51,339 nt of DNA from Candidatus Taylorbacteria bacterium RIFCSPHIGHO2_01_FULL_51_15 (GTDB lineage Bacteria; Patescibacteriota; Minisyncoccia; Phycocordibacterales; UBA10002), in contig MHRI01000011.1 of the NCBI GenBank assembly GCA_001820935.1, positions 2,718 to 54,056 on the forward strand. Reading direction: 5' to 3'. Both the position numbers and the translations under genes were made by a program. The number at the start of each line of letters is the position of its first letter. Position 1 is the first letter of the stretch. Positions 7,024 through 51,290 of the stretch are shown one piece after another. Below the pieces are notes generated by a model that was given only the letters and a program-made list of their open reading frames with translations, had not been told where the DNA came from and searched no databases.

Positions 7024-7054
7024 TAGGAGACACGGAGAAATCCGAAGCACGGTA

Positions 7055-7155
7055 CACAAAAACCAAACAAACATCCCAAAGCACAATATCCAAAAAGCCA
7101 AACGAGGAAGGAAGATTTGTGTTTTGTTTGGATACTGGGCGGTCTGTGCTTTGTG
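7055..7155. repeat. family-A word element, copy A1 (CCAAACAAA / AAAGCACA / TCCAAAAAGCCAAA words)
   Basis: Its reverse complement aligns at roughly 90 percent identity, with one 18-nt indel, to 8776..8896. Shares the core cccaaagcacaRtRtccaaaaRgccaaac with 42051..42114. Confidence 0.8.
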
Positions 7156-7169
7156 TCACTAATTAAGAC

Positions 7170-7454
7170 ATGTATCCAACCGAAGAAACCGGAGTCACAC
7201 CATTGCGGTCAATGCGGCAGGAGGATGCGGCGGAACAAACGCCTATCCCTAGGCCTCTCCAAAGCCTGCCCGCGACGCCAGAGAAATTTCTTCCGCTGCC
7301 ACGCCATATTTCATGGAGTACCGTCATTGGCATCGTGATCCTCGTCCTCTTTCTCATCCTGGCAGGGCTGTACACTTGGGGCGCCAAGCTTGCCAAAGAA
7401 GATGCTGTATTGCAAAATGCCGAAGTAGGAATTGAGGCGGAAAACACGTTTTAG
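7170..7454 (+). CDS. small single-pass membrane protein
   Basis: 94-aa ORF with one TM helix (WSTVIGIVILVLFLILAGLYTW). Weak call. Confidence 0.4.
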   Translation: MYPTEETGVTPLRSMRQEDAAEQTPIPRPLQSLPATPEKFLPLPRHISWSTVIGIVILVLFLILAGLYTWGAKLAKEDAVLQNAEVGIEAENTF

Positions 7455-7456
7455 AA

Positions 7457-7643
7457 TAGAACTGGTTTCAAAACCTATCGCAATCCAAAGATTCGCGGTA
7501 TTCGAGAGAAAAAGGGCGCAGACGAGGAAGGTGTAGCCGGCTACTCCGACTGAGGATAAGCCATTTTTCACCGAATACCACGAATCGACGATGCGAAATG
7601 GCTTCAATCAACGACGCCATGGTAGGTTTTGAAACCAGTTCTA
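7457..7643. repeat. 187-bp MITE-like hairpin element with 21-bp perfect terminal inverted repeats
   Basis: tagaactggtttcaaaaccta at 7457-7477 is the exact reverse complement of 7623-7643. A nested 15-bp inverted repeat lies at 7490-7504 / 7572-7586 (1 mismatch). Confidence 0.75.
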
Positions 7644-7761
7644 GTCGGGGCGTCTGTCATTTGAGTTCTCGTGCCTGTGTTTTCCAGAGAGCGAGGAGTA
7701 GCAAGTGGCGTTGAGTTTTTGGTTTTTTGTGCCTGTCTGCGTTTTGTGCCTTTTTTGTGTT

Positions 7762-8775: not shown

Positions 8776-8910
8776 CACAACAAAACACAATCCGCCCAGT
8801 ATCCAAACAAAACACAAACTTCCCAAAACACAAATCTTCCTTCCTCGTTTGGCTTTTTTGGATACTGTGCTTTGGTATGTTTGTTTGGTCTTTGTGTACT
8901 GTGCTTTTTG
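8776..8910. repeat. family-A word element, copy A2 (opposite orientation to A1)
   Basis: See 7055..7155. Fills the spacer between the tig stop and the rsmE stop. Confidence 0.8.
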
Positions 8911-12216: not shown

Positions 12217-12262
12217 ACATACGAAAACACAAATTAAAGTCCAACGAATGACTACGAATAAG
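12213..12262. repeat. left inverted arm of the rny-hup spacer (family B, ACGAAT words)
   Basis: 12213-12227 and 12242-12262 are exact reverse complements of 12643-12657 and 12606-12626. The arm starts at the rny stop codon. Confidence 0.8.
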
Positions 12263-12488
12263 AAACCGAGCATCTTCCCCTCCCCCAGCTCCCCTGCCAG
12301 AGGGGAGCTCCCGAGTCGGCGAGGGTGAGGGGTGTGAGCAAGGGGGAGATCAAGAAGGGGTTCTTCCTCCCCCCTTCCGCCAGCTAGCGGAATAATAAGC
12401 AATGAAAAAGCAGAAAGCACTAGAAACTTTTAGCGCTTTTTGATTTTTAGGACAGTGAACAGAGTTCTTGTCAACATTTTCGGAGGTA

Positions 12489-12516
12489 TTGCACCAAAAA
12501 TGGCCTCCTATATAAT
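12489..12516 (+). promoter_or_regulatory. candidate promoter for hup
   Basis: TTGCAC, 16-nt spacer, TATAAT. Confidence 0.35.
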
Positions 12517-12605
12517 GATTTAACAGTTTTATCAGTCTTTTATTAGGTCGAAGATTTAGTAATCGCAAAGATATACCAAAGTACGGCGCGCGTATTAATG
12601 AATGC

Positions 12606-12657
12606 CTTATTCGTAGTCATTCGTTGATTCGTATCATTCGTATTTTCGTATGTTTAT
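12606..12657. repeat. right inverted arm of the rny-hup spacer (family B)
   Basis: Reverse complement of the left arm at both ends. Its core is 44/46 identical to 50900..50945 inside ORF 49812..51290. Ends 6 nt before the hup ATG. Confidence 0.8.
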
Positions 12658-21091: not shown

Positions 21092-21144
21092 GAATCTCGG
21101 AAATTGATTAGCTTACGATACTATGCATTTTATTTGATAGAAGG

Positions 21145-21258
21145 AACAAAGCACAGACCGCACAAAAATCCAAACAAAACACAACTGCTCAAAACACAAA
21201 TTATTTTCTGCCTGTTTGGTCTTTGTCCGCCAGCTGGCGGATTGTGCTTTGTGCTTTC
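21145..21258. repeat. family-A word element, copy A3, carrying the 16-nt palindrome
   Basis: Starts caaagcacagaccgc...tccaaacaaaacacaa, like the reverse complement of A1. The outer arms caaagcacagaccgc / gcggattgtgctttg pair at 13/15. Contains tccgccagctggcgga at 21226-21241. Confidence 0.75.
21226..21241. repeat. 16-nt perfect palindrome TCCGCCAGCTGGCGGA (copy 1)
   Basis: Identical copies at 30863-30878 and 50750-50765. One-mismatch variants at 12376-12391 and 35023-35037. Confidence 0.9.
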
Positions 21259-27259: not shown

Positions 27260-27319
27260 CGCTTTTCAGGACAATGCAATCTACGCATTCCCCCGACTAG
27301 CAACAATGATACCTCTTCC

Positions 27320-27480
27320 TAAAGGACAATGTAAAGGACATGGATGTGGATAACTATGCCGGGTGCCCGAAGGCTATATTCATGGCCGCAAATCTTGCCC
27401 TATCAGGGAACACACCTGGCAAAGATTTACAATTGTTGCTTTTTCGAGAAATGTCCCTTAATTGCAAGAATGTCCTTTAT
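27320..27480. repeat. family-F inverted pair enclosing a DnaA-box 9-mer
   Basis: taaaggaca at 27320 and 27332 (forward). atgtccctta at 27451 and atgtcctttat at 27470 (reverse). tgtggataa at 27345-27353. Confidence 0.7.
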
Positions 27481-27591
27481 AGGTGCTGATGGAGACGAAA
27501 ATCCCACCAAAGCGCACCTCGGAATATGCTGAAACAGTGCGAAGTCTTGCAACACAACATCTTTTATGCTACTGTTGTAGCACATAAAAAT

Positions 27592-27858
27592 ATGCTGTCG
27601 AAAACACGAAAGCAGAAGGTCGTCAGGGAAGCTGGTATTCACGGAAAGGATACGGGCTCTCCTGAAGTGCAGATCGCGATTTTGACGAAACGCATTGGTG
27701 AGCTCTCTACTCACCTAAAGGAGCACAAAAAAGACACGCATTCCCGTCGCGGGCTTCTTTCCATGGTGGCGGACCGACAATCACATCTTCGTTATCTTCA
27801 GAAGAAGAATACGCGGCGGTACAATGCTATTGTCAAGAAGCTGGAGCTTAAGAAATAG
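27592..27858 (+). CDS. rpsO: 30S ribosomal protein S15
   Basis: [56 protein letters not shown]. 88 aa from ATG 27592. Confidence 0.92.
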
Positions 27859-27977
27859 TTTCTTGAATTTTCAAGTTTCAATTATCAATTTTCAATCAAT
27901 GTAGCAATACTCAATTCTTAATTAAGAAATTGGGTGTTGTTTGATAATTGAAAATTGTAAATTGATAATTTTCTTCA

Positions 27978-28490
27978 ATGGCAGTCATCAAACACGTGGA
28001 ACAGCGAGTGGGGGTATTTATCGATACGCAAAACCTCTACCACAGCGCTAAGAATCTCTATCGAGCGAACGTTAACTTCGGTCAGGTGCTTAAGGACGCG
28101 GTTGCGAACCGCACGCTTACCCGTGCGATTGCGTATCTTATCACGACGGAAGGAGCCGAGGAGAAAGGGTTTTTCGAGGCGTTAGAGAAGATTGGTATTG
28201 AAACGAAGTCGAAACCTTTGCAAATCTTCGGCAGTGGCGCGAAAAAAGCTGATTGGGACGTGGGGCTCGCCATAGACGCGGTAAAGCTCGCGCCTAAACT
28301 CGACGCGGTGATCATCGCCTCGGGTGATGGAGATTATGTCCCGCTCGTGGAATACCTCAAAAATCTGGGGTGCCAGGTGGAAGTGGTGGCGTTTGGCAAA
28401 TCAACATCGAGCAAACTTCTTGAAGTTGCGGACGACTTTATCGATCTCGACGAAAATCCAAGAAAGTATCTTCTTGGAAGCAGAAGATAG
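27978..28490 (+). CDS. NYN domain (LabA/DUF88-like) protein
   Basis: VGVFIDTQNLYHSAKN...DWDVGLAIDAV...IIASGDGDYVPLVEYLKNLGCQVEVVAF. Confidence 0.8.
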   Translation: MAVIKHVEQRVGVFIDTQNLYHSAKNLYRANVNFGQVLKDAVANRTLTRAIAYLITTEGAEEKGFFEALEKIGIETKSKPLQIFGSGAKKADWDVGLAIDAVKLAPKLDAVIIASGDGDYVPLVEYLKNLGCQVEVVAFGKSTSSKLLEVADDFIDLDENPRKYLLGSRR

Positions 28491-28719
28491 GAGAACGGCT
28501 TCTATACTTAGTAGATGCGTCAAGTGTAAAAAAGAGAAATTTTTGCTACACTGACGGCAATTACCAGTAACGATTGGTCTCTGGAAACAGAGATTTGAAC
28601 AGTAGTTCAGGTCTTCTTTCCGGAGAACAATCACTAATCAATCGCGAATTGAAGACGCGAATCGCCCAAATGCGGTATTCGGGCTATTCGAGAGAAAAAT
28701 TCGAGTTTGATTCGGGATT

Positions 28720-30840
28720 ATGAAGAAACAAGAATTCTCGATTGAGCTTGGTGGAAAAACACTCACCGCCGAGTTTACTGATCTTGCCGAGCAAGCGAAC
28801 GGCTCGGTCATTATGAAATACGGCAACACCACCGCGCTTATCACCGCGACCATGTCTAAAGGAGAGAAGGATATGGATTTCTTTCCTCTCACGGTTGATT
28901 ACGAGGAGAGATTTTACGCGGCAGGTGAAATCTTAGGATCGCGCTTCATCCGCCGCGAGGGAAGACCTACCGACGAGGCGGTGCTCTCGGGGCGCATCGT
29001 GGATCGCACGATTCGCCCGCTTTTCGACCAGCGCATGCGGCGCGATGTACAGGTGGTTATTACGATTCTCTCGATCGATGAGGACGATCCTGACATTCTT
29101 GCGGTCATCGGCGCCTCGCTCGCGCTTGGGACTTCAGATATTCCGTGGAACGGTCCCGTTTCGGCGGTACGCATCGGGAAACTCAAGGACACGAACCATC
29201 TCATCATTAATCCTATTTACAAGGACCGAGCAGAAAACCCCGAATTTGAAATGGATCTCGTGGCTTGTGGCAAGGATGGACTCGTGAATATGATCGAGGT
29301 GGGAGGGAAGGAGGTCCAGGAATCGGTAATCGTCGCCGGACTTGAAGAGGCGGAAAAAGAAATCGAGAAGCTACAGAAATGGCAGAAGGAAATTGTCGCT
29401 AAAATCGGCAAGAAAAAACAAACGGTGACTCTGCCAGAAATTTCTCCAGCATTGAAACAGTTATTTGCGGAGAAGGTTTCCTCGCGCATGAAGGAGTACG
29501 TTTTCGGACAGGCGGGGAACGCGCGTATATATGAACTCAAAGGGGAATGGATGGCTGTTGCCAAAGAACGTTTCCCGAACGAAAAAGCGAGCATCGCCGA
29601 CAACCTCTTTGAAGAGGAGATTAACACTCTCATTCATAACGAGGCGGTAGATAATAACCGTCGGCCAGACGGGCGAGGTATGGACGAGGTGCGGCCACTC
29701 TTCGCGAAGGCAGGCGGCATTTCCAAAATCCTTCATGGTGCCGGCATGTTTTACCGCGGGCAGACTCATATTCTATCGGTGCTGACTCTTGGCGGACCTG
29801 GGGACGCGCAGATTATTGATAACATGGAGATTCAGGAATCGAAGAAGCGATTCTTGCACCACTACAACTTCCCGCCATTTTCGACGGGGGAAACCGGCCG
29901 CATCGGTTCGACGAATCGCCGTATGATCGGCCACGGCGCGCTTGCCGAAAAGGCCCTTATCCCGGTGATACCACCGATGGAAAAGTTTCCTTACACCATC
30001 CGTCTTGTGTCCGAAGCCTTCGCTTCCAACGGCTCCACCTCGATGGGGAGCGTGTGTGGCTCCACGCTTGCGCTCATGGACGGCGGGGTACCTATTACCG
30101 CGCCAGTTGCAGGCATCGCATCCGGTTTAATGATGCGTAGCGCGAAAGAATACAAGGTGCTTACCGACATTCAGGGACCGGAAGACCATCACGGAGATAT
30201 GGACTTTAAGGTGGCTGGAACAAGAACGGGAGTCACGGCGGTACAAATGGATGTGAAGGTAAACGGCGTACCGATCCCAATTCTTTCTGAAGCGTTCGAG
30301 AAAGCGAAACAAGCTCGTTATAAAATTCTGGACGTCATAGAGAAAGAAATCTCGGCTCCTCGACCCGATATTTCTCCCCTTGCTCCCAAGATTGTCACGA
30401 TACGGGTGAAGAAAGACCAAATCGGTCTTGTGATCGGCGGAGGAGGAAAAACGATCAACGGCATTAAAGAAAAGACGGGTGTTGATGCGATAGACATTGA
30501 GGAAGATGGCACGATTTTCATCTCCGGAAGAGAGGGGAGCGCAGATAAGGCCGCGAAAATGATAGAGGAACTCACCCATGAATTTTCTCCCGGTGACCGC
30601 CTCACGGGCACGGTGGTGAAAATAGCCGAGTTTGGTGCCTTCGTGGCGCTAAATGAGAACACCGATGGAATGGTGCACGTGTCCGAAATCGCTCCGTTCC
30701 GCATTGACCGCGTAGAAGCGGTGCTGAAAGTGGGTGACAAGGTGCCGGTGGTGGTAAAGGAAATTGATAAGGAACGCGGGCGCATCAAACTCTCGATTAA
30801 GGACGCGGACCCAAACTTCATTAAGCGCAAGGCCGCTTAG
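28720..30840 (+). CDS. pnp: polyribonucleotide nucleotidyltransferase (PNPase)
   Basis: 706 aa. Two RNase PH domains (RPDGRGMDEVRPL), a KH domain (GLVIGGGGKTINGIKEKTG) and an S1 domain (GTVVKIAEFGAFVAL). Confidence 0.95.
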   Translation: MKKQEFSIELGGKTLTAEFTDLAEQANGSVIMKYGNTTALITATMSKGEKDMDFFPLTVDYEERFYAAGEILGSRFIRREGRPTDEAVLSGRIVDRTIRPLFDQRMRRDVQVVITILSIDEDDPDILAVIGASLALGTSDIPWNGPVSAVRIGKLKDTNHLIINPIYKDRAENPEFEMDLVACGKDGLVNMIEVGGKEVQESVIVAGLEEAEKEIEKLQKWQKEIVAKIGKKKQTVTLPEISPALKQLFAEKVSSRMKEYVFGQAGNARIYELKGEWMAVAKERFPNEKASIADNLFEEEINTLIHNEAVDNNRRPDGRGMDEVRPLFAKAGGISKILHGAGMFYRGQTHILSVLTLGGPGDAQIIDNMEIQESKKRFLHHYNFPPFSTGETGRIGSTNRRMIGHGALAEKALIPVIPPMEKFPYTIRLVSEAFASNGSTSMGSVCGSTLALMDGGVPITAPVAGIASGLMMRSAKEYKVLTDIQGPEDHHGDMDFKVAGTRTGVTAVQMDVKVNGVPIPILSEAFEKAKQARYKILDVIEKEISAPRPDISPLAPKIVTIRVKKDQIGLVIGGGGKTINGIKEKTGVDAIDIEEDGTIFISGREGSADKAAKMIEELTHEFSPGDRLTGTVVKIAEFGAFVALNENTDGMVHVSEIAPFRIDRVEAVLKVGDKVPVVVKEIDKERGRIKLSIKDADPNFIKRKAA

Positions 30841-30850
30841 TGAAGTAAAA

Positions 30851-30980
30851 CCCAAAGCCTGATCCGCCAGCTGGCGGACAAAAAACCAAACAAACATCCC
30901 AAAATCCCAAAACAAAGACGGTTTGTATTTTGGATAATTGTGTTTTGTTTGGTTCTTTGGACGGCCTGTGTTTTGTGTAT
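30851..30980. repeat. family-A word element, copy A4, with the 16-nt palindrome at 30863-30878
   Basis: aaaaaccaaacaaacatcccaaaa..., as in A1, with the right arm ttggataattgtgttttgtttgg. Confidence 0.75.
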
Positions 30981-31016
30981 TCTTTGCCGCAGTCATACTT
31001 GCGATATACTTACCCT

Positions 31017-31973
31017 ATGTCTCCGCAATCTTCAGAGCCGAAACCGCCGAGTGAACTCAAGCGTATTCGAACGTATCAAAGCGACGTCGAGGAGCTCCTG
31101 CAAAAACAGAACGTCTCTAAGGCCTCCATTGCACTTGCGGAAAGTGAGCGGCAGGTGGAAAAACAAAAAAAAGAGGAGGTAAAAAAGACGGAGACCTCTC
31201 CTCGGGAGCCTGATCCGTCAAGGGTGTTCAAGATATCAGGGGAATTGCCGACTGGAACAGGCGTGAATCTCCGCCGCTCCGTCATGGTTTTCGTAGGTCT
31301 CTTCGTGCTCGGGGGAGTAGCGGCTGGAGCGTTCTTCTCTTTTAAAAAAGATGAGTTACCTGTTGGTCCCGCTCCGATAGCGAGAGTCTCCGAGACCCCG
31401 ACCATCGTACTTAGCGGGGGAGAGAAGAGGGCAGGGGCGATTAAGGCGATACAGCAGGGTCTCTCGGCGTTATCGGTTCCGCAAAATGAGCTTCGTCGTG
31501 CTCTGCTACGACGAGGAGAAGCACTGATTACCACACCAGAATTATTCGAGCTCCTTGAAACCGGTGCGTCGCCCGCTCTGATTCGAGCGCTCACAAAATG
31601 GCCTACACTCGGCGTACATGGATTTCAGGGCGGGCAACCGTTTCTCCTCTTTGGCGTCACTTCGTACGACCATGCGTTTGCCGGTATGCTCGCGTGGGAG
31701 CAAAGACTAGTTGCCGACATTGCCCCTCTCTTTGGAGTGTCTATAAGAGAAGTGCTCGCAAATGTGGGCAGCACGACTGCGGAGGCGCTGCAGAACACCA
31801 TAGAGATAAAAGATGTCATTATCCGCAACAAGGATGGCCGCGCGGTATTTGGTCCTGGAGGGGATATACTCTTTGTGTACTCTTTTGTAGATAAGGAAAC
31901 GCTTGTACTCACGACAGGGGAGGACACCATGCGAGCCTTGATTAGCAAAGCGGGAGGAGGTCAACTCAAATGA
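31017..31973 (+). CDS. single-pass membrane protein, unknown function
   Basis: 318 aa from ATG 31017. Charged N-terminus, one TM (VMVFVGLFVLGGVAAGAFFSF), extracytoplasmic domain. The upstream part of ORF 30930.. is repeat sequence. Confidence 0.6.
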   Translation: MSPQSSEPKPPSELKRIRTYQSDVEELLQKQNVSKASIALAESERQVEKQKKEEVKKTETSPREPDPSRVFKISGELPTGTGVNLRRSVMVFVGLFVLGGVAAGAFFSFKKDELPVGPAPIARVSETPTIVLSGGEKRAGAIKAIQQGLSALSVPQNELRRALLRRGEALITTPELFELLETGASPALIRALTKWPTLGVHGFQGGQPFLLFGVTSYDHAFAGMLAWEQRLVADIAPLFGVSIREVLANVGSTTAEALQNTIEIKDVIIRNKDGRAVFGPGGDILFVYSFVDKETLVLTTGEDTMRALISKAGGGQLK

Positions 31974-32095
31974 AATATGAAGTATGGGATATGGAATATT
32001 AAAGAGGTTCGATTAGGTATTACATATTCCATACTTCATATCCCATATTTCATATTCCATGCTCCATATTTCATTTGATATGGTATACTGCTTTT

Positions 32096-32452
32096 ATGAC
32101 GATAGATACCAACGTATTTCAAAAGAAATTGCTCGCGGAGAAAGAGCTGGTGGAAAAAGAGCTGGCGACCGTTGGCCGGCGTAATCCGCAAAACGCCGCG
32201 GATTGGGAGCCGATCTCCGGAGTGATGGAGCGGCCGGCGGAGCGCGATGAGGTGGCTGATAAACTTGAATCTTTTGAAGAGAATGTGGCGATCGTGCGCC
32301 AGCTTGAACTTCGTCTTGCGGAAATTCAAAATGCGCTCGAGCGAGTGCAAGGTGGAACATACGGAACTTGTAGTGTGTGTGGTAAGGAGATAGAAACGGC
32401 ACGCCTTGAAGCGAATCCTGCGGCAGCGACGTGCAAGCAACACTTAAAGTAA
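32096..32452 (+). CDS. TraR/DksA family zinc-finger protein
   Basis: Coiled-coil N-terminus followed by GTYGTCSVCGKEIETARLEANPAAATCKQH. Confidence 0.75.
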   Translation: MTIDTNVFQKKLLAEKELVEKELATVGRRNPQNAADWEPISGVMERPAERDEVADKLESFEENVAIVRQLELRLAEIQNALERVQGGTYGTCSVCGKEIETARLEANPAAATCKQHLK

Positions 32453-32582
32453 TTATCGAATACCAAATTTCGAATCTTGAAAAATGTTTAAACGCGGGCA
32501 ACCAGGAATAATAACTTATTCTCTTTATTGGGTATTCGATATTTTTAGACATTAGATATTCGAAATTCGATATTTCTCTTCC

Positions 32583-34157
32583 ATGAGTTTCGCCTCCGTT
32601 TCCAGCGCCCAGGTGCACCTCTTAAGCACCTATCTCGTGCGCGTTGAAGTGGATCTCTCGAAAGGCCTGAACGCCTTTTCTATCGTCGGGTTGCCTGACA
32701 AAGCGGTGGAGGAAGCGAAAGATCGCATTGCCGCCGCGATCAAAAACACCGGCTTTAAATCCCCGAAGCAGAAAAATCACAAAATAGTTATTTCACTTGC
32801 GCCGGCGGATGTGAGGAAGGAGGGACCAAGTTTCGATCTGCCGATGGCTATTGGATACCTCATCGCCTCTAAATGCCTACCAGCAGACGTGAAGGAAAAA
32901 CTGTTTGTAGGCGAGCTCTCACTCGACGGTATGGTACAGCCAATTGACGGCGTGCTTCCCATCGTCCAAGAAGCGAAGCGGGCAGGCTTCAGGGAAATAT
33001 ATGTACCCAAAGAGAACGCAAAGGAAGCGGCGCTCATCGGTGAGATTGATGTGTACGGTGTAAAGAATTTGTGGGAACTTGTTGCCCACCTTACTAAGAA
33101 AGATATTTTACCAGACGAGAATTGTCCCTTTATACAAAAAAAGAGGATGAGTCCGGTGCCGCAAACCGCGTTTGAAGTCGGTACGCGAGAGTATCAAGTT
33201 GATTTTGCCGATGTGAAGGGTCAGCGCACCGCGAAGCGCGGTTTAGAGATTGCCGCGGCTGGAGGACACAATATCGCCATGTGGGGCCCCCCTGGTACCG
33301 GAAAGACACTGCTCGCGAAAGCGTTCATCTCCATCCTCCCGCCGCTCGATATTGAGGAGGCGCTTGAGGTTACGGGGATTCATTCGGTCGCGGGAGCGCT
33401 CCATGAGCCCCTCATCACGTACCCGCCTTTCCGCGCTCCGCATCATACTGCTTCTTACATCGCGCTTGTCGGAGGGGGTTCAGTGCCTAAGCCCGGTGAG
33501 ATCACGCTCGCGCACCGAGGAGTGCTCTTTCTTGATGAATTTCCAGAATTCGAGCGGCGCGTGATTGACGCGCTTAGGCAGCCGCTTGAGGATCGGATTG
33601 TAAGCGTGTCCCGAGTGAAAGGTTCAGCCCAATTCCCGGCACACTTCACCCTTATCACGGCCATGAATCCTTGCCCGTGCGGAAACAACGGGGTAAAGGG
33701 GAAGCAGTGCACCTGCGCGCAGCATCAGATTGACAGATACAAGCGAAAAATCTCCGGCCCTATCGTGGATCGCATAGATTTGTGGACGGAGGTTTCGATT
33801 GTCGAACATGAAAAGTTGACCGAAGGACGCGGGAGTGAAAAGACGAGCGAAGAAATACGCAGGAAGGTGGAAGCCGCTCGCAAAAAAGCCGAAGAACGGT
33901 ACCACACGCTAAAACTCCCGTTCAAGACAAACAGCGAAGTGGGAGCGCGCGATATCGGAGCGGCAATCCCTCTTAGCGACGAAGTAAAAAAGACATTGAA
34001 TCTTGCCGCGAAAAAGCACGACCTTTCTGCGCGCTCGTATCATCGACTGATCAAACTCGCTCGAACTGTCGCCGACCTCGAGGGCCACGATGAGGTGGCG
34101 GTGGATGATCTTATGGAAGCACTCACATATCGACCGAAACAACTCTCAAATAGTTAG
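32583..34157 (+). CDS. comM: YifB/ComM family Mg-chelatase-like AAA+ ATPase
   Basis: Lon-protease-like N-terminal domain, Walker A GPPGTGKT, Walker B VLFLDEFPEF, and the CPCGN...C.C zinc motif. Confidence 0.88.
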   Translation: MSFASVSSAQVHLLSTYLVRVEVDLSKGLNAFSIVGLPDKAVEEAKDRIAAAIKNTGFKSPKQKNHKIVISLAPADVRKEGPSFDLPMAIGYLIASKCLPADVKEKLFVGELSLDGMVQPIDGVLPIVQEAKRAGFREIYVPKENAKEAALIGEIDVYGVKNLWELVAHLTKKDILPDENCPFIQKKRMSPVPQTAFEVGTREYQVDFADVKGQRTAKRGLEIAAAGGHNIAMWGPPGTGKTLLAKAFISILPPLDIEEALEVTGIHSVAGALHEPLITYPPFRAPHHTASYIALVGGGSVPKPGEITLAHRGVLFLDEFPEFERRVIDALRQPLEDRIVSVSRVKGSAQFPAHFTLITAMNPCPCGNNGVKGKQCTCAQHQIDRYKRKISGPIVDRIDLWTEVSIVEHEKLTEGRGSEKTSEEIRRKVEAARKKAEERYHTLKLPFKTNSEVGARDIGAAIPLSDEVKKTLNLAAKKHDLSARSYHRLIKLARTVADLEGHDEVAVDDLMEALTYRPKQLSNS

Positions 34158-35006: not shown

Positions 35007-35056
35007 AGGTCTACTAACTGCTCCCCCAGCTGGCGGGCTACTAGCTACTTACTTCT

Positions 35057-36414: not shown

Positions 36415-36803
36415 CCGAGCAATCCACCCCTGTGGATAACGAAAAGAGATGAAATATGAAACATGAAATATGAACTATTAGATATAGGTGATTGAGAAGA
36501 CAAGCGATTTATTATTCCATAGTACATATTACATAATTCATCCATACATTATGGTTCTAGGAGTCCTGAGGCTTTGCGAAGGGCAACGAAAACGAAGCCT
36601 AAATATCGAATCTCGAATACCTAATCTTGAAAAAATCTGAATACAAAATACTAAACAAAATCCTCCGTCTCGAAGACTCGACCACCCTCCTTTAGAAAAG
36701 GAGGAATTCAGAAATATGTTTGTAGTTTCTTCTTTTCTATTGAGTTTTTTCGAAATTCGAAATTCGGTATTCGATATTTTTTTTGTGCTATAGTGTCCAC
36801 GCT

Positions 36804-41081: not shown

Positions 41082-42041
41082 ATGTCATGGGGTATGAAAA
41101 TTATGTTAGGAATCGGAGCAGCCATCCTGCTCGGCGGGGGTCTCTGGTTTTTATACACCGGTCGGAGTGAAGCTACGTTCAGGCGCGTGAGCCCCGAAGA
41201 TGCCAAGAGGGCAGCCGCGGTGCTCTCGAAGGATCAAGACGGCGACGAGCTTAAGGACTGGGAGGAAGAATTGTGGCGCACTGACCCCTTGAGCTCCGAC
41301 TCTGATGGAGATGGGACGCTCGATGGGGAAGAGATCAAACTCGGCAGAAATCCTCTGAAGGCAGGGTCCAATGATGAGCTGGATAAAGAAACGATTGAAT
41401 CAAAAACGGTTCCGGGAGGAGGGGATTGGACCGAGACCGATCGCCTTTCTCGAGAGCTTTTCGCCAAATACCTCGCTATCAAGCAATCGGGAGCGCCTTT
41501 CACCGCCGAGGAAGAAGAGGCACTGCTTGCAGATTTTATACACCGATACCCGGAACCAGCATCCATTACCGTATACACGGAAAGCGATATCCGTCTGACC
41601 GAAAAAGACGACGTTGCGGCCTGGCATGGGTATGGGAACGCGATTGGATCGGTGCTTGAGAAGCATAGAAATACAGGGGGCGAGAGTGAGCTTATCATAT
41701 TCGAGCGCGCGCTTGAAAATGAGGACGAAACCGATCTTGCGAGCATAGAGACCCGCGTAGAGCGTTATGAACGGCTACTTCTTGACTTTAAAGCTCTACC
41801 GGCACCAAAAAGTATGCAGCCTATGGCTGTGGCCCTCCTTAATGCCCTTGAAGCCCTCAAACAGAGCGTCGGTGGTATGACGCTTGCGTTTACCGATCCC
41901 GTGCGGGCGCTCTCTTTTGCAACCGCGTATCCGAGCGCGATAGATACGCTCACCGAAAGCTTTGGGCGTATCGCCCTGTTTTTCCAAGATAATGAAGTGG
42001 TGTTTGGGAAGGATGAAGCGGGATACATTCTTACCCAATAA
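41082..42041 (+). CDS. N-terminally anchored protein with TSP3-like Ca-binding repeats (paralog 2)
   Basis: TM helix (IMLGIGAAILLGGGLWFLY), DQDGDELKDWEEELWRTDPLSSDSDGDGTLDGEEIKLGRNP, C-terminus LFFQDNEVVFGKDEAG. Confidence 0.65.
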   Translation: MSWGMKIMLGIGAAILLGGGLWFLYTGRSEATFRRVSPEDAKRAAAVLSKDQDGDELKDWEEELWRTDPLSSDSDGDGTLDGEEIKLGRNPLKAGSNDELDKETIESKTVPGGGDWTETDRLSRELFAKYLAIKQSGAPFTAEEEEALLADFIHRYPEPASITVYTESDIRLTEKDDVAAWHGYGNAIGSVLEKHRNTGGESELIIFERALENEDETDLASIETRVERYERLLLDFKALPAPKSMQPMAVALLNALEALKQSVGGMTLAFTDPVRALSFATAYPSAIDTLTESFGRIALFFQDNEVVFGKDEAGYILTQ

Positions 42042-42050
42042 GCAAGATGT

Positions 42051-42114
42051 AAAGCACAGTGTCCAAAAAGCCAAATAATGAAACAACCCAAAGCACAGTG
42101 TCCAAAAGGCCAAA
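42051..42114. repeat. family-A left arm: 25-nt direct repeat aaagcacagtgtccaaaaRgccaaa x2
   Basis: 42051-42075 and 42090-42114 are 24/25 identical. The same core occurs in A1 (7075-7105) and, inverted, in A2. Confidence 0.8.
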
Positions 42115-42137
42115 CAAAAAAGTAGAATTCACAAAAA

Positions 42138-42512
42138 ATGGGACAGCGTATGGAATCAAAGGAGACAAACAGATATCGAGAGTTGGAAAATCGCACGGCA
42201 ACATTTGCAAAGCAAACGATTGGAGTTTGCCTTAAATTACCGAGGAATAGAGTAAACGATCCACTAGTTAGCCAAGTTATTAGAGCCTCGGGGTCAGTCG
42301 GAGCAAATTATCGTGAAGCAAACGAAGCGTTGGGAAAGAAAGACTTTGTGTATCGTTTAGGGGTTGCTCGTAAGGAGGCGAAGGAAGCACAGTACTGGTT
42401 TGAACTACTAGTGGAGGCAAATCCCCTGCAAAGGGAAGCATTAACGGTGCTTTTGAGAGAGGCGGAAGAACTTCGCAACATCTTATCTGCAATCATAAAC
42501 AAGGTCTCTTAG
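42138..42512 (+). CDS. four-helix-bundle protein (23S rRNA intervening-sequence protein / Avd family)
   Basis: 124 aa. Family-typical pattern: LENRTATFAKQTIGVCLKLPRNRVNDPLVSQVIRASGSVGANYREANEALGKKDFVYRLGVARKEAKEAQYWFELL. Confidence 0.8.
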   Translation: MGQRMESKETNRYRELENRTATFAKQTIGVCLKLPRNRVNDPLVSQVIRASGSVGANYREANEALGKKDFVYRLGVARKEAKEAQYWFELLVEANPLQREALTVLLREAEELRNILSAIINKVS

Positions 42513-42516
42513 CCCC

Positions 42517-42550
42517 TTTGTTTGGCTTTTTGGGTATTGTGTTTTGTGCT
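42517..42550. repeat. family-A right arm (inverted relative to 42051..42119)
   Basis: tttgtttggctttttggg is complementary to ccaaaaagccaaa / gccaaacaaa of the left arm. Starts 5 nt after the ORF stop. Confidence 0.7.
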
Positions 42551-42558
42551 ACTGCGTC

Positions 42559-42604
42559 TTATCCACTTTGTATACACCGCTTATCCACAATCCTCTGCTA
42601 TAAT
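42559..42604 (+). promoter_or_regulatory. tandem DnaA-box-like 9-mers overlapping an extended -10 promoter
   Basis: ttatccact at 42559-42567, ttatccaca at 42581-42589, and tgcTATAAT at 42596-42604. Upstream of the 927-codon ORF. Confidence 0.35.
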
Positions 42605-49811: not shown

Positions 49812-51290
49812 ATGGATCCTCAAGACGCAAGAATACAACTGAATATTTTCATCGACAATCTGCCCGACAGTGTTTTCATTCCGCTCCGTGATAGAAATAT
49901 TGACCCAAGTCTCGTTACGACCGACATTACCTCGGCGTATGAATTCGTTATTCGAGAAACAGGACACATTGTGGAAGGTGTGCGGCGTGTGCTGGCAGGA
50001 GAAGATTCACCAAACAACTTCGTGGCGTTCATTCAAAAAGACGAACATATAGAAGAAGATAACCGTCAGAAGATACCTGTGCTTGCATATGAAATCCAGA
50101 CAAAGGTATTCGATCCAGTACTGCCGATTTTGAAACAAGCGGGGTTCACAATAAAGGAAGGAAGGGTGCCGGAGCCGCCGAAATCGGTGGTGAAGGATGA
50201 AGTAAGAAGTGTGAATTATGGGAGGGAGACACCCCCCGCTTCCGAAGACGGAGGCGCCCCCTTTGCTAAGGGAGATATCCGACCACCTATAGATGAAAAG
50301 AATGCTCGATCCCTCCTTCGCATCGCGGCCGGCACCACATATACCGAAGGGGACCTTAGGAGCGCCTTCGAGGCATTACCGCAAGGACTCCGGCAATCAA
50401 TCTCATCGGTTGATACCGCGAACGCCATCCAGGACGTCGCCAAAAAGCATCTCTTGCATGTTGACCAGATGGCGGCACTCGCGAGCGAAACGGGGCTGGT
50501 GCTTCTTGGGCTCACGCATCCTAGGGATTTTATCCTAAATCTTGCAAGACGCCTGCGGGTGCCTGAAGAAAAGGCGCGAGAGGTCGCAAGAGACATAAGC
50601 GGGCAGATACTTTCGAAAGTCCGAGAAGCTCTCCGCGGTCTTCACGAAGACGTGAAGCCGCCGAAAGAAAATACCGAATATCGAAGTTCGAATATCGAAA
50701 AATCTCGAACCACACAACAAGAGAACACTGAACTAAACGCTAAACGCTATCCGCCAGCTGGCGGACTAAACGCTTCTCTCAAAACTCCCTATTCTGCCGG
50801 AGCAAAATGGAATGTGGGAGAAAATATCCTTGCTAAACAAGCCGAGGAAAAACTCTCTCGGGAGGAGATGCTTCATGGGATTGAAAATCCTAAATCGATA
50901 TACGAAAATACGAATTATACGAATCAACGAATGGCTACGAATAAGACGAGGGCGTCAGTAGCCGAGAAGAAAGAAGCGGTGGGACCGACGGGGTGGAAAG
51001 CGGTGCAGAATGAAGTACGAAGTATGAATTATGAAGTAGGGAAGAGCCAAATCCCATCGAAACCAGTCGTTCCCGCATCCCCCATTACCGCGCCTAGACC
51101 GTCCATGACGGCGGAAAAAGTTCGACCGCAAAGCGAGGGAGATACCCCACCTCAACCCTCACCTCTAAAGAGGGGAGGAAAGGCCGATGACGCGGCAAGC
51201 TTCTTGGAGCAGAAATTGGAACAACCCATGTCCATTCCGAGGGAGGAGAAGCGGTATACGACAGATCCGTATAGAGAGCCACTCGCGTAA
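49812..51290 (+). CDS. hypothetical protein with repeat-word mosaic in its C-terminal half
   Basis: 492-aa ORF. The N-terminal 270 aa look like ordinary protein. From ~50660 the ORF runs through five intergenic repeat families without a stop and ends ...RYTTDPYREPLA. Confidence 0.6.
   Translation: MDPQDARIQLNIFIDNLPDSVFIPLRDRNIDPSLVTTDITSAYEFVIRETGHIVEGVRRVLAGEDSPNNFVAFIQKDEHIEEDNRQKIPVLAYEIQTKVFDPVLPILKQAGFTIKEGRVPEPPKSVVKDEVRSVNYGRETPPASEDGGAPFAKGDIRPPIDEKNARSLLRIAAGTTYTEGDLRSAFEALPQGLRQSISSVDTANAIQDVAKKHLLHVDQMAALASETGLVLLGLTHPRDFILNLARRLRVPEEKAREVARDISGQILSKVREALRGLHEDVKPPKENTEYRSSNIEKSRTTQQENTELNAKRYPPAGGLNASLKTPYSAGAKWNVGENILAKQAEEKLSREEMLHGIENPKSIYENTNYTNQRMATNKTRASVAEKKEAVGPTGWKAVQNEVRSMNYEVGKSQIPSKPVVPASPITAPRPSMTAEKVRPQSEGDTPPQPSPLKRGGKADDAASFLEQKLEQPMSIPREEKRYTTDPYREPLA
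50750..50765. repeat. 16-nt palindrome TCCGCCAGCTGGCGGA inside a coding region
   Basis: Identical to 21226-21241 and 30863-30878. Here it is translated as YPPAGGL. Confidence 0.9.

Follow-up and report, generated by a model that had tools for sequence, protein, structure and literature searches.

In a 51,339-nt stretch of contig MHRI01000011.1 from Candidatus Taylorbacteria bacterium RIFCSPHIGHO2_01_FULL_51_15 (hereafter the window), a gene for a small four-helix-bundle (4HB) protein of the PF05635/TIGR02436 family lies between two inverted arms composed of 7-nt words, which can pair to enclose the gene in the loop of a hairpin. This placement of an open reading frame (ORF) within a stem is characteristic of the 4HB family in many phyla, outside ribosomal RNA (rRNA), and it constitutes a conserved portable module with ORF-less relatives, including one at an orthologous site. 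We lean towards the view that the gene and its two arms form a single portable cassette of the intervening-sequence (IVS) type, in which the PF05635 ORF occupies the loop of a heptamer-word hairpin, the stem is cut by RNase III and/or bound by an Avd-like pentamer, and solo hairpins are derivatives of the complete element. The best name appears to be an IVS-type four-helix-bundle cassette with heptamer-word arms, and its family-wide reach appears to be undescribed. The analysis covered the window, which is 51 kb of one genome, and related loci (L numbers below) as stretches of ±5 kb.

Gene, protein and arms of the window cassette

The cassette has the following parts:

42045-42084, + strand: distal copy in the left arm, AAAGCACAGTGTCCAAAAAGCCAAATAA (unit 1 of family A); forms a direct repeat with the proximal copy
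42085-42125, + strand: left arm, proximal copy, CCCAAAGCACAGTGTCCAAAAGGCCAAACAAA; pairs with the right arm and closes the minimum free energy (MFE) fold
42126-42149, + strand: short A-rich leader from the arm to the start codon, containing the alternative ATG at 42138
42150-42512, + strand: 4HB protein gene (PF05635 / TIGR02436), 120 aa from ATG 42150 or 124 aa from ATG 42138
42517-42550, + strand: right arm, TTTGTTTGGCTTTTTGGGTATTGTGTTTTGTGCT; inverted complement of the left arms

The initial annotation of this region, made from the sequence alone, had placed a 124-aa 4HB ORF between repeated words that it termed family A, with a direct repeat in the left arm and an inverted right arm starting 5 nt after the stop. 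All of the sequence features that it described around the ORF are present. The left side carries two copies of a ~28-nt unit (42051-42078 and 42090-42117), and the right arm is in the position given for it, except that it begins 4 nt rather than 5 nt after the TAG stop codon (42510-42512). The ORF encodes a PF05635 protein. Most homologues begin at the second ATG (42150, M5), favoring a protein of 120 aa with ATG 42138 as the alternative start.

The protein scores 62.4 bits against Pfam PF05635 (cut-off 33.8) and 79.1 bits against TIGR02436 (cut-off 24), and its nearest solved structure is that of BT_0352 (PDB 2rld, E = 1e-14). The AlphaFold (AF2) monomer model (predicted local distance difference test score, pLDDT, of 92.7) has helices at residues 6-32, 40-62, 67-94 and 96-123 that form a four-helix up-down bundle of the 2rld and 2gsc type, and Foldseek aligns the model with both structures (template modeling, TM, scores of 0.73-0.87 and 0.74-0.83, respectively). 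A more distant match is to Avd (4dwl and 8ube, TM 0.65-0.78), with which the protein shares only 13-17% sequence identity. The family motif GxxRxxxSxxxNxxE (PMC3936711) is recognizable as Q46-x2-R49-x3-S53-x3-N57-x2-E60, with Q in place of G at the first position; among 29 relatives the R, S and N of the motif are invariant and E60 is nearly so (≥90%). The protein is basic, with an isoelectric point (pI) of 9.4 in the window and a range of 9.4-9.7 when relatives are included. Domain searches matched no catalytic domain in this protein, which is the product of the sole ORF of the cassette, PADLOC has no model for it, and exact-sequence look-ups of the window protein and of P0001 returned no match. 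The PF05635/TIGR02436 family itself is large, with a single-sequence search returning 7,230 clusters at 50% identity.

As the initial annotation proposed, the arms can pair across the ORF. The inverted arms 42089-42118 and 42517-42546 are 30 nt each and 83% complementary, and the MFE fold of 42040-42560 (521 nt) closes on the arm stem (z = -2.25); the enclosing stem has the length (at least ~20 bp) expected for the terminal inverted repeat of an rRNA IVS. The arms also fold better than shuffled controls, which the initial annotation had named as a test: the predicted arm–arm duplex of -44.3 kcal/mol (z = -5.2) is matched by 0 of 500 dinucleotide shuffles and equalled at 4 of 1000 same-geometry positions in the window. 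The two left copies are about equally able to pair with the right arm, with duplex energies of -41.5 kcal/mol for the proximal copy alone, -39.9 kcal/mol for the distal copy alone and the full -44.3 kcal/mol for both. The core CCCAAAGCACARTRTCCAAAARGCCAAAC, which had been reported as common to the cassette and a region at 7075-7105, is indeed present exactly at 7075-7103 and 42087-42115 and with 3 mismatches at 42520-42548 on the minus strand, where shuffles expect 0 matches. The window arms have a modest excess of self-matching at a lag of 7 nt (0.38-0.49), and no Rfam family matches them at gathering thresholds or at permissive E-values.

A consensus scan of the + strand found no promoter or terminator between the upstream stop codon (42041) and the 4HB ORF or within the cassette. 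The downstream 927-aa ORF, first called from 42518, most likely starts at GTG 42614, behind a conserved block, and the right arm is therefore most likely non-coding. The conserved block (42559-42604) lies between the right arm and the large downstream gene and is found in the same place in L001, L004, L084, L167 and L169. It contains two DnaA-box-like TTATCCAC(A) motifs (42559-66 and 42581-89), an extended -10 sequence TGCTATAAT at 42596-604 and a conserved GATGTGAGAG(C/A)GG.

A heptamer-word bracket around 4HB genes in many phyla

The pattern described by the initial annotation is real, but its scale was understated, since the architecture is family-wide, crosses phyla and has arms with a 7-nt period. 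The survey comprised 160 homologous loci taken from GTDB genomes and JGI metagenomes, in which 149 genes were non-redundant and had complete flanks. Each of these genes was given the score of the strongest inverted repeat formed by the 150 nt that precede its start codon and the 150 nt that follow its stop, and 522 ORFs of ≥150 aa located >500 nt from any 4HB gene served as controls. The median score is 36 for the 4HB genes and 16 for the controls (Mann-Whitney p = 1.5e-69). The control 95th percentile is exceeded by 86% of the 4HB genes and the 99th by 81%, and for 85% of the genes the score is higher than in ≥99 of 100 shuffled versions of the gene's flanks. Median arm length is 34 nt, with 87% complementarity; in the median case, the left arm ends 11.5 nt before the start codon and the right arm begins 27 nt after the stop. 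The hosts are Patescibacteria, Flavobacterium isolates, Omnitrophota, Planctomycetota, Nitrospirota, Desulfobacterota and others, and the arm words are lineage-specific (for example AAATTCC..., AATAACC..., AAATCCG... and AAACTCT...). None of the ~170 loci is located in rRNA, and no related locus has more than an isolated rRNA-motif match.

Autocorrelation of the family arms peaks at lags 7 and 14, as expected for arms made of tandem 7-nt units of the kind known from cyanobacterial short tandemly repeated repetitive (STRR) elements. The lag-7 values are 0.43/0.46 against a baseline of ~0.30, and 7 is the best lag in 94/149 upstream and 109/149 downstream flanks. The lag-7 excess of 0.12/0.16 compares with 0.003/0.010 in controls (p = 1e-46 and 1e-52). 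Strict tandem arrays (≥82% self-match at lag 7) are enriched beside the 4HB gene, yet they account for only ~1% of the bases in the flanks; in hosts other than cyanobacteria, the arms consist for the most part of degenerate strings of words, and perfect arrays are rare there.

We considered an assembly artefact of metagenome-assembled genomes and rejected it, as the same build is found in Flavobacterium isolate genomes and in finished plasmids. Finished plasmids of cultured cyanobacteria have perfect (TAATTCG)4 ... (CGAATTA)4 brackets around the 4HB gene. On Dolichospermum pAfl69, the gene lies inside a helicase–methyltransferase operon, between (TAATTCG)4(AATTTGG)6 and (CGAATTA)4, with a perfect 33-nt inverted repeat, and the arms of a Gloeocapsa 4HB gene consist of (TTTTAGA) and (TCTAAAA) words.

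On the 69-kb Dolichospermum plasmid NZ_CP051207.1 (L174/L175), all 10 of the AATTACG/CGTAATT arrays fall within 6.4 kb (27263-33647) around the plasmid's single 4HB gene. The forward-orientation arrays are stop-free in all frames and are located inside the annotated helicase, hypothetical and methyltransferase coding sequences (CDSs), and the reverse-orientation arrays overlap the ends of two such CDSs, apparently supplying their stop codons. This clustering suggests that more than a single stem is at work.

In several Flavobacterium species, the 4HB cassette occupies a conserved position ~1.3 kb downstream of the S16 (rpsP) leader (L038, L041, L042, L048, L051 and L053), which points to long vertical retention inside a ribosomal-protein operon.

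Close relatives and ORF-less hairpins

The initial annotation had staked its proposal on two comparisons, enclosure of further 4HB genes by family-A words and insertion polymorphism between relatives, and both came out in its favor. Close homologues of the window protein (55-84% aa identity; L001, L002/L005, L004, L006, L008, L084, L085 and L089) have family-A words upstream and their complement downstream, in at least four different genomic contexts. The 4HB gene sits in family A in 9/9 related loci and never in another hairpin family, and clusters of family-A words in the loci of relatives occur almost only beside this gene. Two spacers of a conserved gene cluster, UvrD-KsgA-x-TSP3(~300 aa)-319aa-885aa-~1100aa, illustrate the polymorphism:

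Spacer 319/885, window, L001 and L084: family-A arms with the 4HB ORF
Spacer 319/885, L167: ORF-less TAGCTTA-heptamer hairpin
Spacer 319/885, L169: another hairpin, no 4HB gene
Spacer 319/885, L004: DUF559 gene in a 40-nt perfect inverted repeat
Spacer 300/319, L004: family-A arms with the 4HB ORF
Spacer 300/319, L167: family-A arms without the ORF
Spacer 300/319, L169: hairpin of other words
Spacer 300/319, L165 and L166: DUF559 gene
Spacer 300/319, window: empty, 17 nt

The arms travel with the 4HB gene into different intergenic spacers, and the same arms occur without the ORF in L167. At their outer ends, the cassette of L004 and the solo hairpin of L167 agree at 37/40 and 19/22 positions. 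When the ORF is deleted in silico from the L084 cassette, the remainder aligns with the ORF-less L167 spacer at 82%, and the L167 loop keeps a Shine-Dalgarno-like AGGAG and an ATG. Gene-less copies that share termini with a gene-bearing copy are thus found both in L167 (compared with L004 and L084) and among the window hairpins described below.

Two further insertions were seen in these relatives. A small, endonuclease-like DUF559 gene is present in the two spacers at L004 2010-2800, L165 3122-3493 and L166 795-1166; the inverted repeat around the L004 copy is perfect over 40 nt and is not heptamer-built, a second kind of gene-in-a-hairpin competing for these sites. Nearby, L169 1-1014 encodes a UvrD orthologue with Hint/intein-splicing domains that are absent from the window UvrD, another insertion polymorphism.

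Sequence divergence shows both the protein and the arms to be under selection. Among the window, L001, L002, L004 and L084, non-synonymous divergence (dN) is ~0.1, synonymous divergence (dS) is saturated (>1.9) and dN/dS is ~0.05, a pattern of strong purifying selection on the ORF; the 4HB protein is therefore functional and the copies are old. The 32-nt arm core CACAAAGCACAGTGCACAAAAACCAAACAAAC is retained with ≤8 mismatches in ten loci, including loci where the protein is only 55-58% identical. Because neutral sequence would be randomized at saturated dS, the sequence of the arms, and not only their pairing, is constrained.

ORF-less family-A hairpins had been reported at four sites in the window, and we confirmed all four (no strand is assigned):

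7045-7155: ORF-less family-A hairpin after the H+-pyrophosphatase gene
8776-8906: ORF-less hairpin of family A where the trigger-factor and RsmE genes converge
21139-21258: ORF-less family-A hairpin between the ddl and mur-ligase genes, with a nested TCCGCCAGCTGGCGGA palindrome in one arm; z = -3.98
30847-30983: ORF-less family-A hairpin directly after the PNPase stop codon; z = -2.5

The hairpins at 7045-7155 and 8776-8906 are mutually inverted near-copies (92-100% identity over ~110 nt) that flank the trigger-factor gene, and they could give rise to inversion of the trigger-factor segment. Those at 21139-21258 and 30847-30983 are mutually inverted copies with 77-81% identity. The 550 nt next to the first hairpin (7156-7704) lack annotation, and additional strong inverted repeats are found there (7454-7477/7623-7646, 96%). 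The 16-nt palindrome TCCGCCAGCTGGCGGA occurs five times in the window (12376-12391, 21226-21241, 30863-30878, 35022-35037 and 50750-50765) and is nested in the arms of family-A hairpins in two of these five cases, resembling a smaller element inserted into a larger one.

The window is a 50% G+C chromosome segment of the Patescibacteria/Parcubacteria type that carries housekeeping genes for NusA, H+-PPase, trigger factor, ClpP, RNase Y, HU, Ddl, S15, PNPase, ComM, UvrD and KsgA. Besides family A, it has five or more hairpin families, each of them periodic at 7 nt. The possibility that these hairpins are simply the plain terminators of this genome was rejected because ordinary GC-stem/T-tail terminators stand separately alongside them; the heptamer-word hairpins are a class of their own. 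We searched the loops of other bracketed spacers in the window (12263-12605, 36636-36745 and others) with 120 diverse 4HB queries and found no decayed 4HB remnants.

Two of these hairpin regions deserve mention. Between the genes for RNase Y and HU, a 343-nt spacer is enclosed by a 46-nt inverted repeat of ATTCGTA-type words (12217-12262 / 12606-12653), a different word family. The spacer contains neither a convincing ORF nor a remnant of a 4HB gene and has no match in Rfam; it may encode an RNA that is not yet annotated, or it may be a cassette that has lost its contents. Heptamer-word hairpins at 27878-27965, 28629-28719 and 30847-30983 separate and follow rpsO, a gene for an NYN-domain protein and pnp, and one hairpin of this region lies directly upstream of the pnp start codon. 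In E. coli, the pnp leader has an RNase III-processed hairpin at the equivalent position.

Mechanism, alternatives and known systems

The model for the window cassette draws on the 23S rRNA IVS of Coxiella, in which RNase III cleaves a 28-bp terminal stem in its middle, the loop holds the S23p ORF and tandem GACAGAT heptamers precede the ORF (PMC4990558). The likeness to rRNA IVS architecture that the initial annotation noted is upheld by the stem and the S23p-family ORF and extends to these upstream heptamers. By analogy, the window cassette would have no promoter of its own and would rely on read-through from the upstream gene, much as an rRNA IVS is copied together with its rRNA. The A/C-rich 5′ arm, inert by itself, would wait for the U/G-rich 3′ arm, which once made would pair with it across the ~400-nt ORF to give a stem of ~30-37 bp. 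RNase III may then cut this stem, freeing the cassette RNA from the host transcript and leaving a stem stub on the upstream mRNA. Such self-insulation could explain why the module is tolerated in rRNA helices, within operons and at their ends, and could let it lie between genes without doing harm. The protein, which is basic, resembles Avd and is a predicted pentamer, probably binds the stem, and a sequence-specific partner would fit because the arm sequence is constrained. Solo hairpins would be deletion derivatives that persist and multiply in the manner of miniature inverted-repeat transposable elements (MITEs). The module may move by hairpin-to-hairpin gene conversion.

Several observations weigh against this model. 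The excised IVS RNA of Coxiella is labile and S23p may not be made (PMC4990558), so release for expression is not established even for the precedent. Mismatches in the arms are strand-symmetric (118 G·U and 102 A·C), and pairing of the sense RNA is thus not favored over symmetry at the DNA level. No transposase or recombinase was found in the cassette and no target-site duplication is evident at its borders. The same-word arrays inside neighboring CDSs on the Dolichospermum plasmid are unexplained by a simple one-stem model. Finally, the proposal in the initial annotation of an autonomous-like copy with derived solo hairpins stands with respect to shared ends and presence/absence polymorphism, but its direction is not settled by comparison, since L167, L004 and L084 fit ORF loss and ORF gain alike.

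An alternative that overlaps the cassette model, and that we regard as possible but doubtful, takes protein recognition rather than RNase III insulation as the reason for the arms. As in the systems of repetitive extragenic palindromic (REP) sequences and their REP-associated tyrosine transposases (RAYTs), or in that of Avd, the arms would be chiefly putative binding sites, in RNA or DNA, for a 4HB pentamer that regulates its own synthesis. The ORF-less hairpins at gene ends would be further targets, making up a regulon for stability or termination, or sites that the protein helps to copy. The conservation of arm sequence in the face of saturated ORF dS is consistent with this idea, as are the pI of 9.4-9.7 and the concentration of all ten arrays of a 69-kb plasmid around its single 4HB gene. 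There is also a precedent in Avd, whose pentamer grips an 11-bp RNA stem-loop beside its gene using flipped-out bases contacted by repeated protomers (bioRxiv 10.1101/2023.10.23.563531). Paralogous 4HB genes in one locus have different word families (L012, L070 and L072), which is expected if each protein has cognate words, but co-inheritance alone would also yield paralogue-specific words. Words of a gene's own arms recur elsewhere within ±5 kb in 15-18% of loci, compared with 1.5-4.5% for foreign arms, and some of these recurrences are ORF-less hairpins. However, the other heptamer-hairpin families in the window, at least five in number, have no cognate 4HB gene there, and a RAYT-like copying role is without basis in a protein with no known catalytic motif.

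It is less probable still, and in our judgment quite unlikely, that the cassette is a DNA-level mobile element whose arms are terminal inverted repeats, whose ORF-less copies are MITEs and whose RNA pairing is incidental. Such an element would be moved by an enzyme of the host or one acting in trans, or would spread through gene conversion between hairpins once the palindrome has broken. The presence of the cassette in different spacers of one conserved cluster, the shared outer ends of ORF-less forms, the near-identical inverted hairpins flanking the window trigger-factor gene and the strand-symmetric mismatch spectrum could all be accommodated in this way. Besides the missing transposase, recombinase and target-site duplication, however, the arms have an internal period and differ among relatives in how long they are and in the order of their words, unlike defined transposon ends, and the members of this family that reside in rRNA are demonstrated substrates of RNA processing (PMC4990558).

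Coincidence, in which the heptamer hairpins are ordinary host terminators or mRNA stabilizers and one of them happened to receive or tolerate the 4HB gene, is highly improbable: several hairpin families do lie at gene ends in the window, cyanobacterial STRR hairpins have been proposed to stabilize transcripts (PMC2670836) and the DUF559 gene also lies in an inverted-repeat loop, but this explanation is already largely refuted by the bracket around 86% of homologues across phyla compared with 5% of control genes, by the near-restriction of family-A words to the vicinity of the gene in relatives and by the 9/9 loci in family A, while the DUF559 repeat is not heptamer-built and classical terminators are separate in the window.

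We found no paper that links 4HB genes, rRNA IVSs, STRR heptamers and Avd, or that describes the bracket around non-rRNA copies. A speculative synthesis, which we put forward tentatively and hold to be rather improbable, is that STRR-type heptamer hairpins (known since 1990, with counterparts in Patescibacteria, Bacteroidota and others) and ORF-bearing rRNA IVSs are one system centered on PF05635. Each 4HB paralogue would recognize a stem of its own 7-nt words and would maintain, regulate or propagate that hairpin family, in a partnership like that of REP and RAYT but built on an Avd-type RNA-binding pentamer instead of a transposase.

PF05635/TIGR02436 is a very large orphan family whose members turn up in rRNA genes, in cas, restriction and defence operons and among strain-specific genes, and Avd is its only understood relative. 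Previous reports noticed 4HB genes inside cas operons (PMC3936711) and noted them as strain-specific genes, and rRNA insertions of the candidate phyla radiation (CPR) sometimes carry a 4HB (S23p) ORF, at varied sites (bioRxiv 10.1101/2024.02.27.582315). A self-contained module with its ORF in a heptamer stem, if confirmed, would offer a testable handle on function in RNase III processing and protein–stem binding and would explain the harmless residence of 4HB genes inside rRNA and operons. It would also join three loose ends, namely the origin of ORF-bearing rRNA IVSs, the meaning of STRR heptamers and the free-standing relatives of Avd, and would flag many dispersed intergenic hairpins for annotation as probable derivatives of 4HB cassettes.

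Among known systems, the closest is the ORF-bearing 23S rRNA IVS of Leptospira and Coxiella burnetii. Both encode a PF05635 protein in the loop of a terminal-repeat stem (~28-30 bp) within an element of ~430-500 nt, with tandem heptamers upstream of the ORF in Coxiella, and the rRNA IVS likewise lacks its own promoter and depends on host transcription (PMC4990558). The window copy differs in lying between protein-coding genes rather than in an rRNA helix (an Rfam scan of the window found only 4 tRNAs and no rRNA), in having arms that are long strings of lineage-specific 7-nt words with the left arm duplicated, and in coming from a genome with dispersed ORF-less copies. RNase III cleavage, demonstrated for the rRNA IVS, would apply to the window cassette by analogy.

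The STRR heptamer hairpins of cyanobacteria, long known and of unknown function, with transcript stabilization proposed, share the 7-nt unit and the location in intergenic hairpins at gene borders (PMC2670836), and just such arrays, in perfect form, flank the 4HB genes of cyanobacteria on both sides. STRRs were, however, described without an associated gene, whereas the arms studied here enclose a specific gene family and extend well beyond cyanobacteria (to Patescibacteria, Bacteroidota, Omnitrophota, Planctomycetota and others), and the family-A arms of the window are degenerate word strings rather than perfect tandems.

Avd is likewise a basic protein with a four-helix-bundle fold, and it binds an RNA stem-loop encoded beside its own gene; in its diversity-generating retroelement (DGR), an RNA duplex joins segments upstream and downstream of the template repeat (TR). 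In contrast, the window stem encloses the ORF of the protein itself, and the 51 kb have no target gene, no reverse transcriptase domain among the ~43 window proteins and no long direct repeat resembling a TR and variable repeat (VR) pair in the repeat analysis of the window, which places the protein outside Avd proper.

REP sequences and their REPIN hairpins with RAYTs, and MITEs such as Correia and enterobacterial repetitive intergenic consensus (ERIC) elements, also combine a gene flanked inversely by short repeats with gene-less hairpins scattered at gene ends, the gene-less copies being more numerous than the one with the gene. Among such hairpins, Correia elements are known both to be cut by RNase III and to stabilize transcripts. 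In the window, the enclosed 4HB protein lacks any known nuclease motif and is not a transposase, the repeats are heptamer-periodic, and the target-site duplications that accompany a MITE and its autonomous partner were not seen. The window element is thus neither an rRNA IVS, by its location, nor a DGR Avd, as it has no reverse transcriptase, but it is related to ORF-bearing IVSs and probably works like them.

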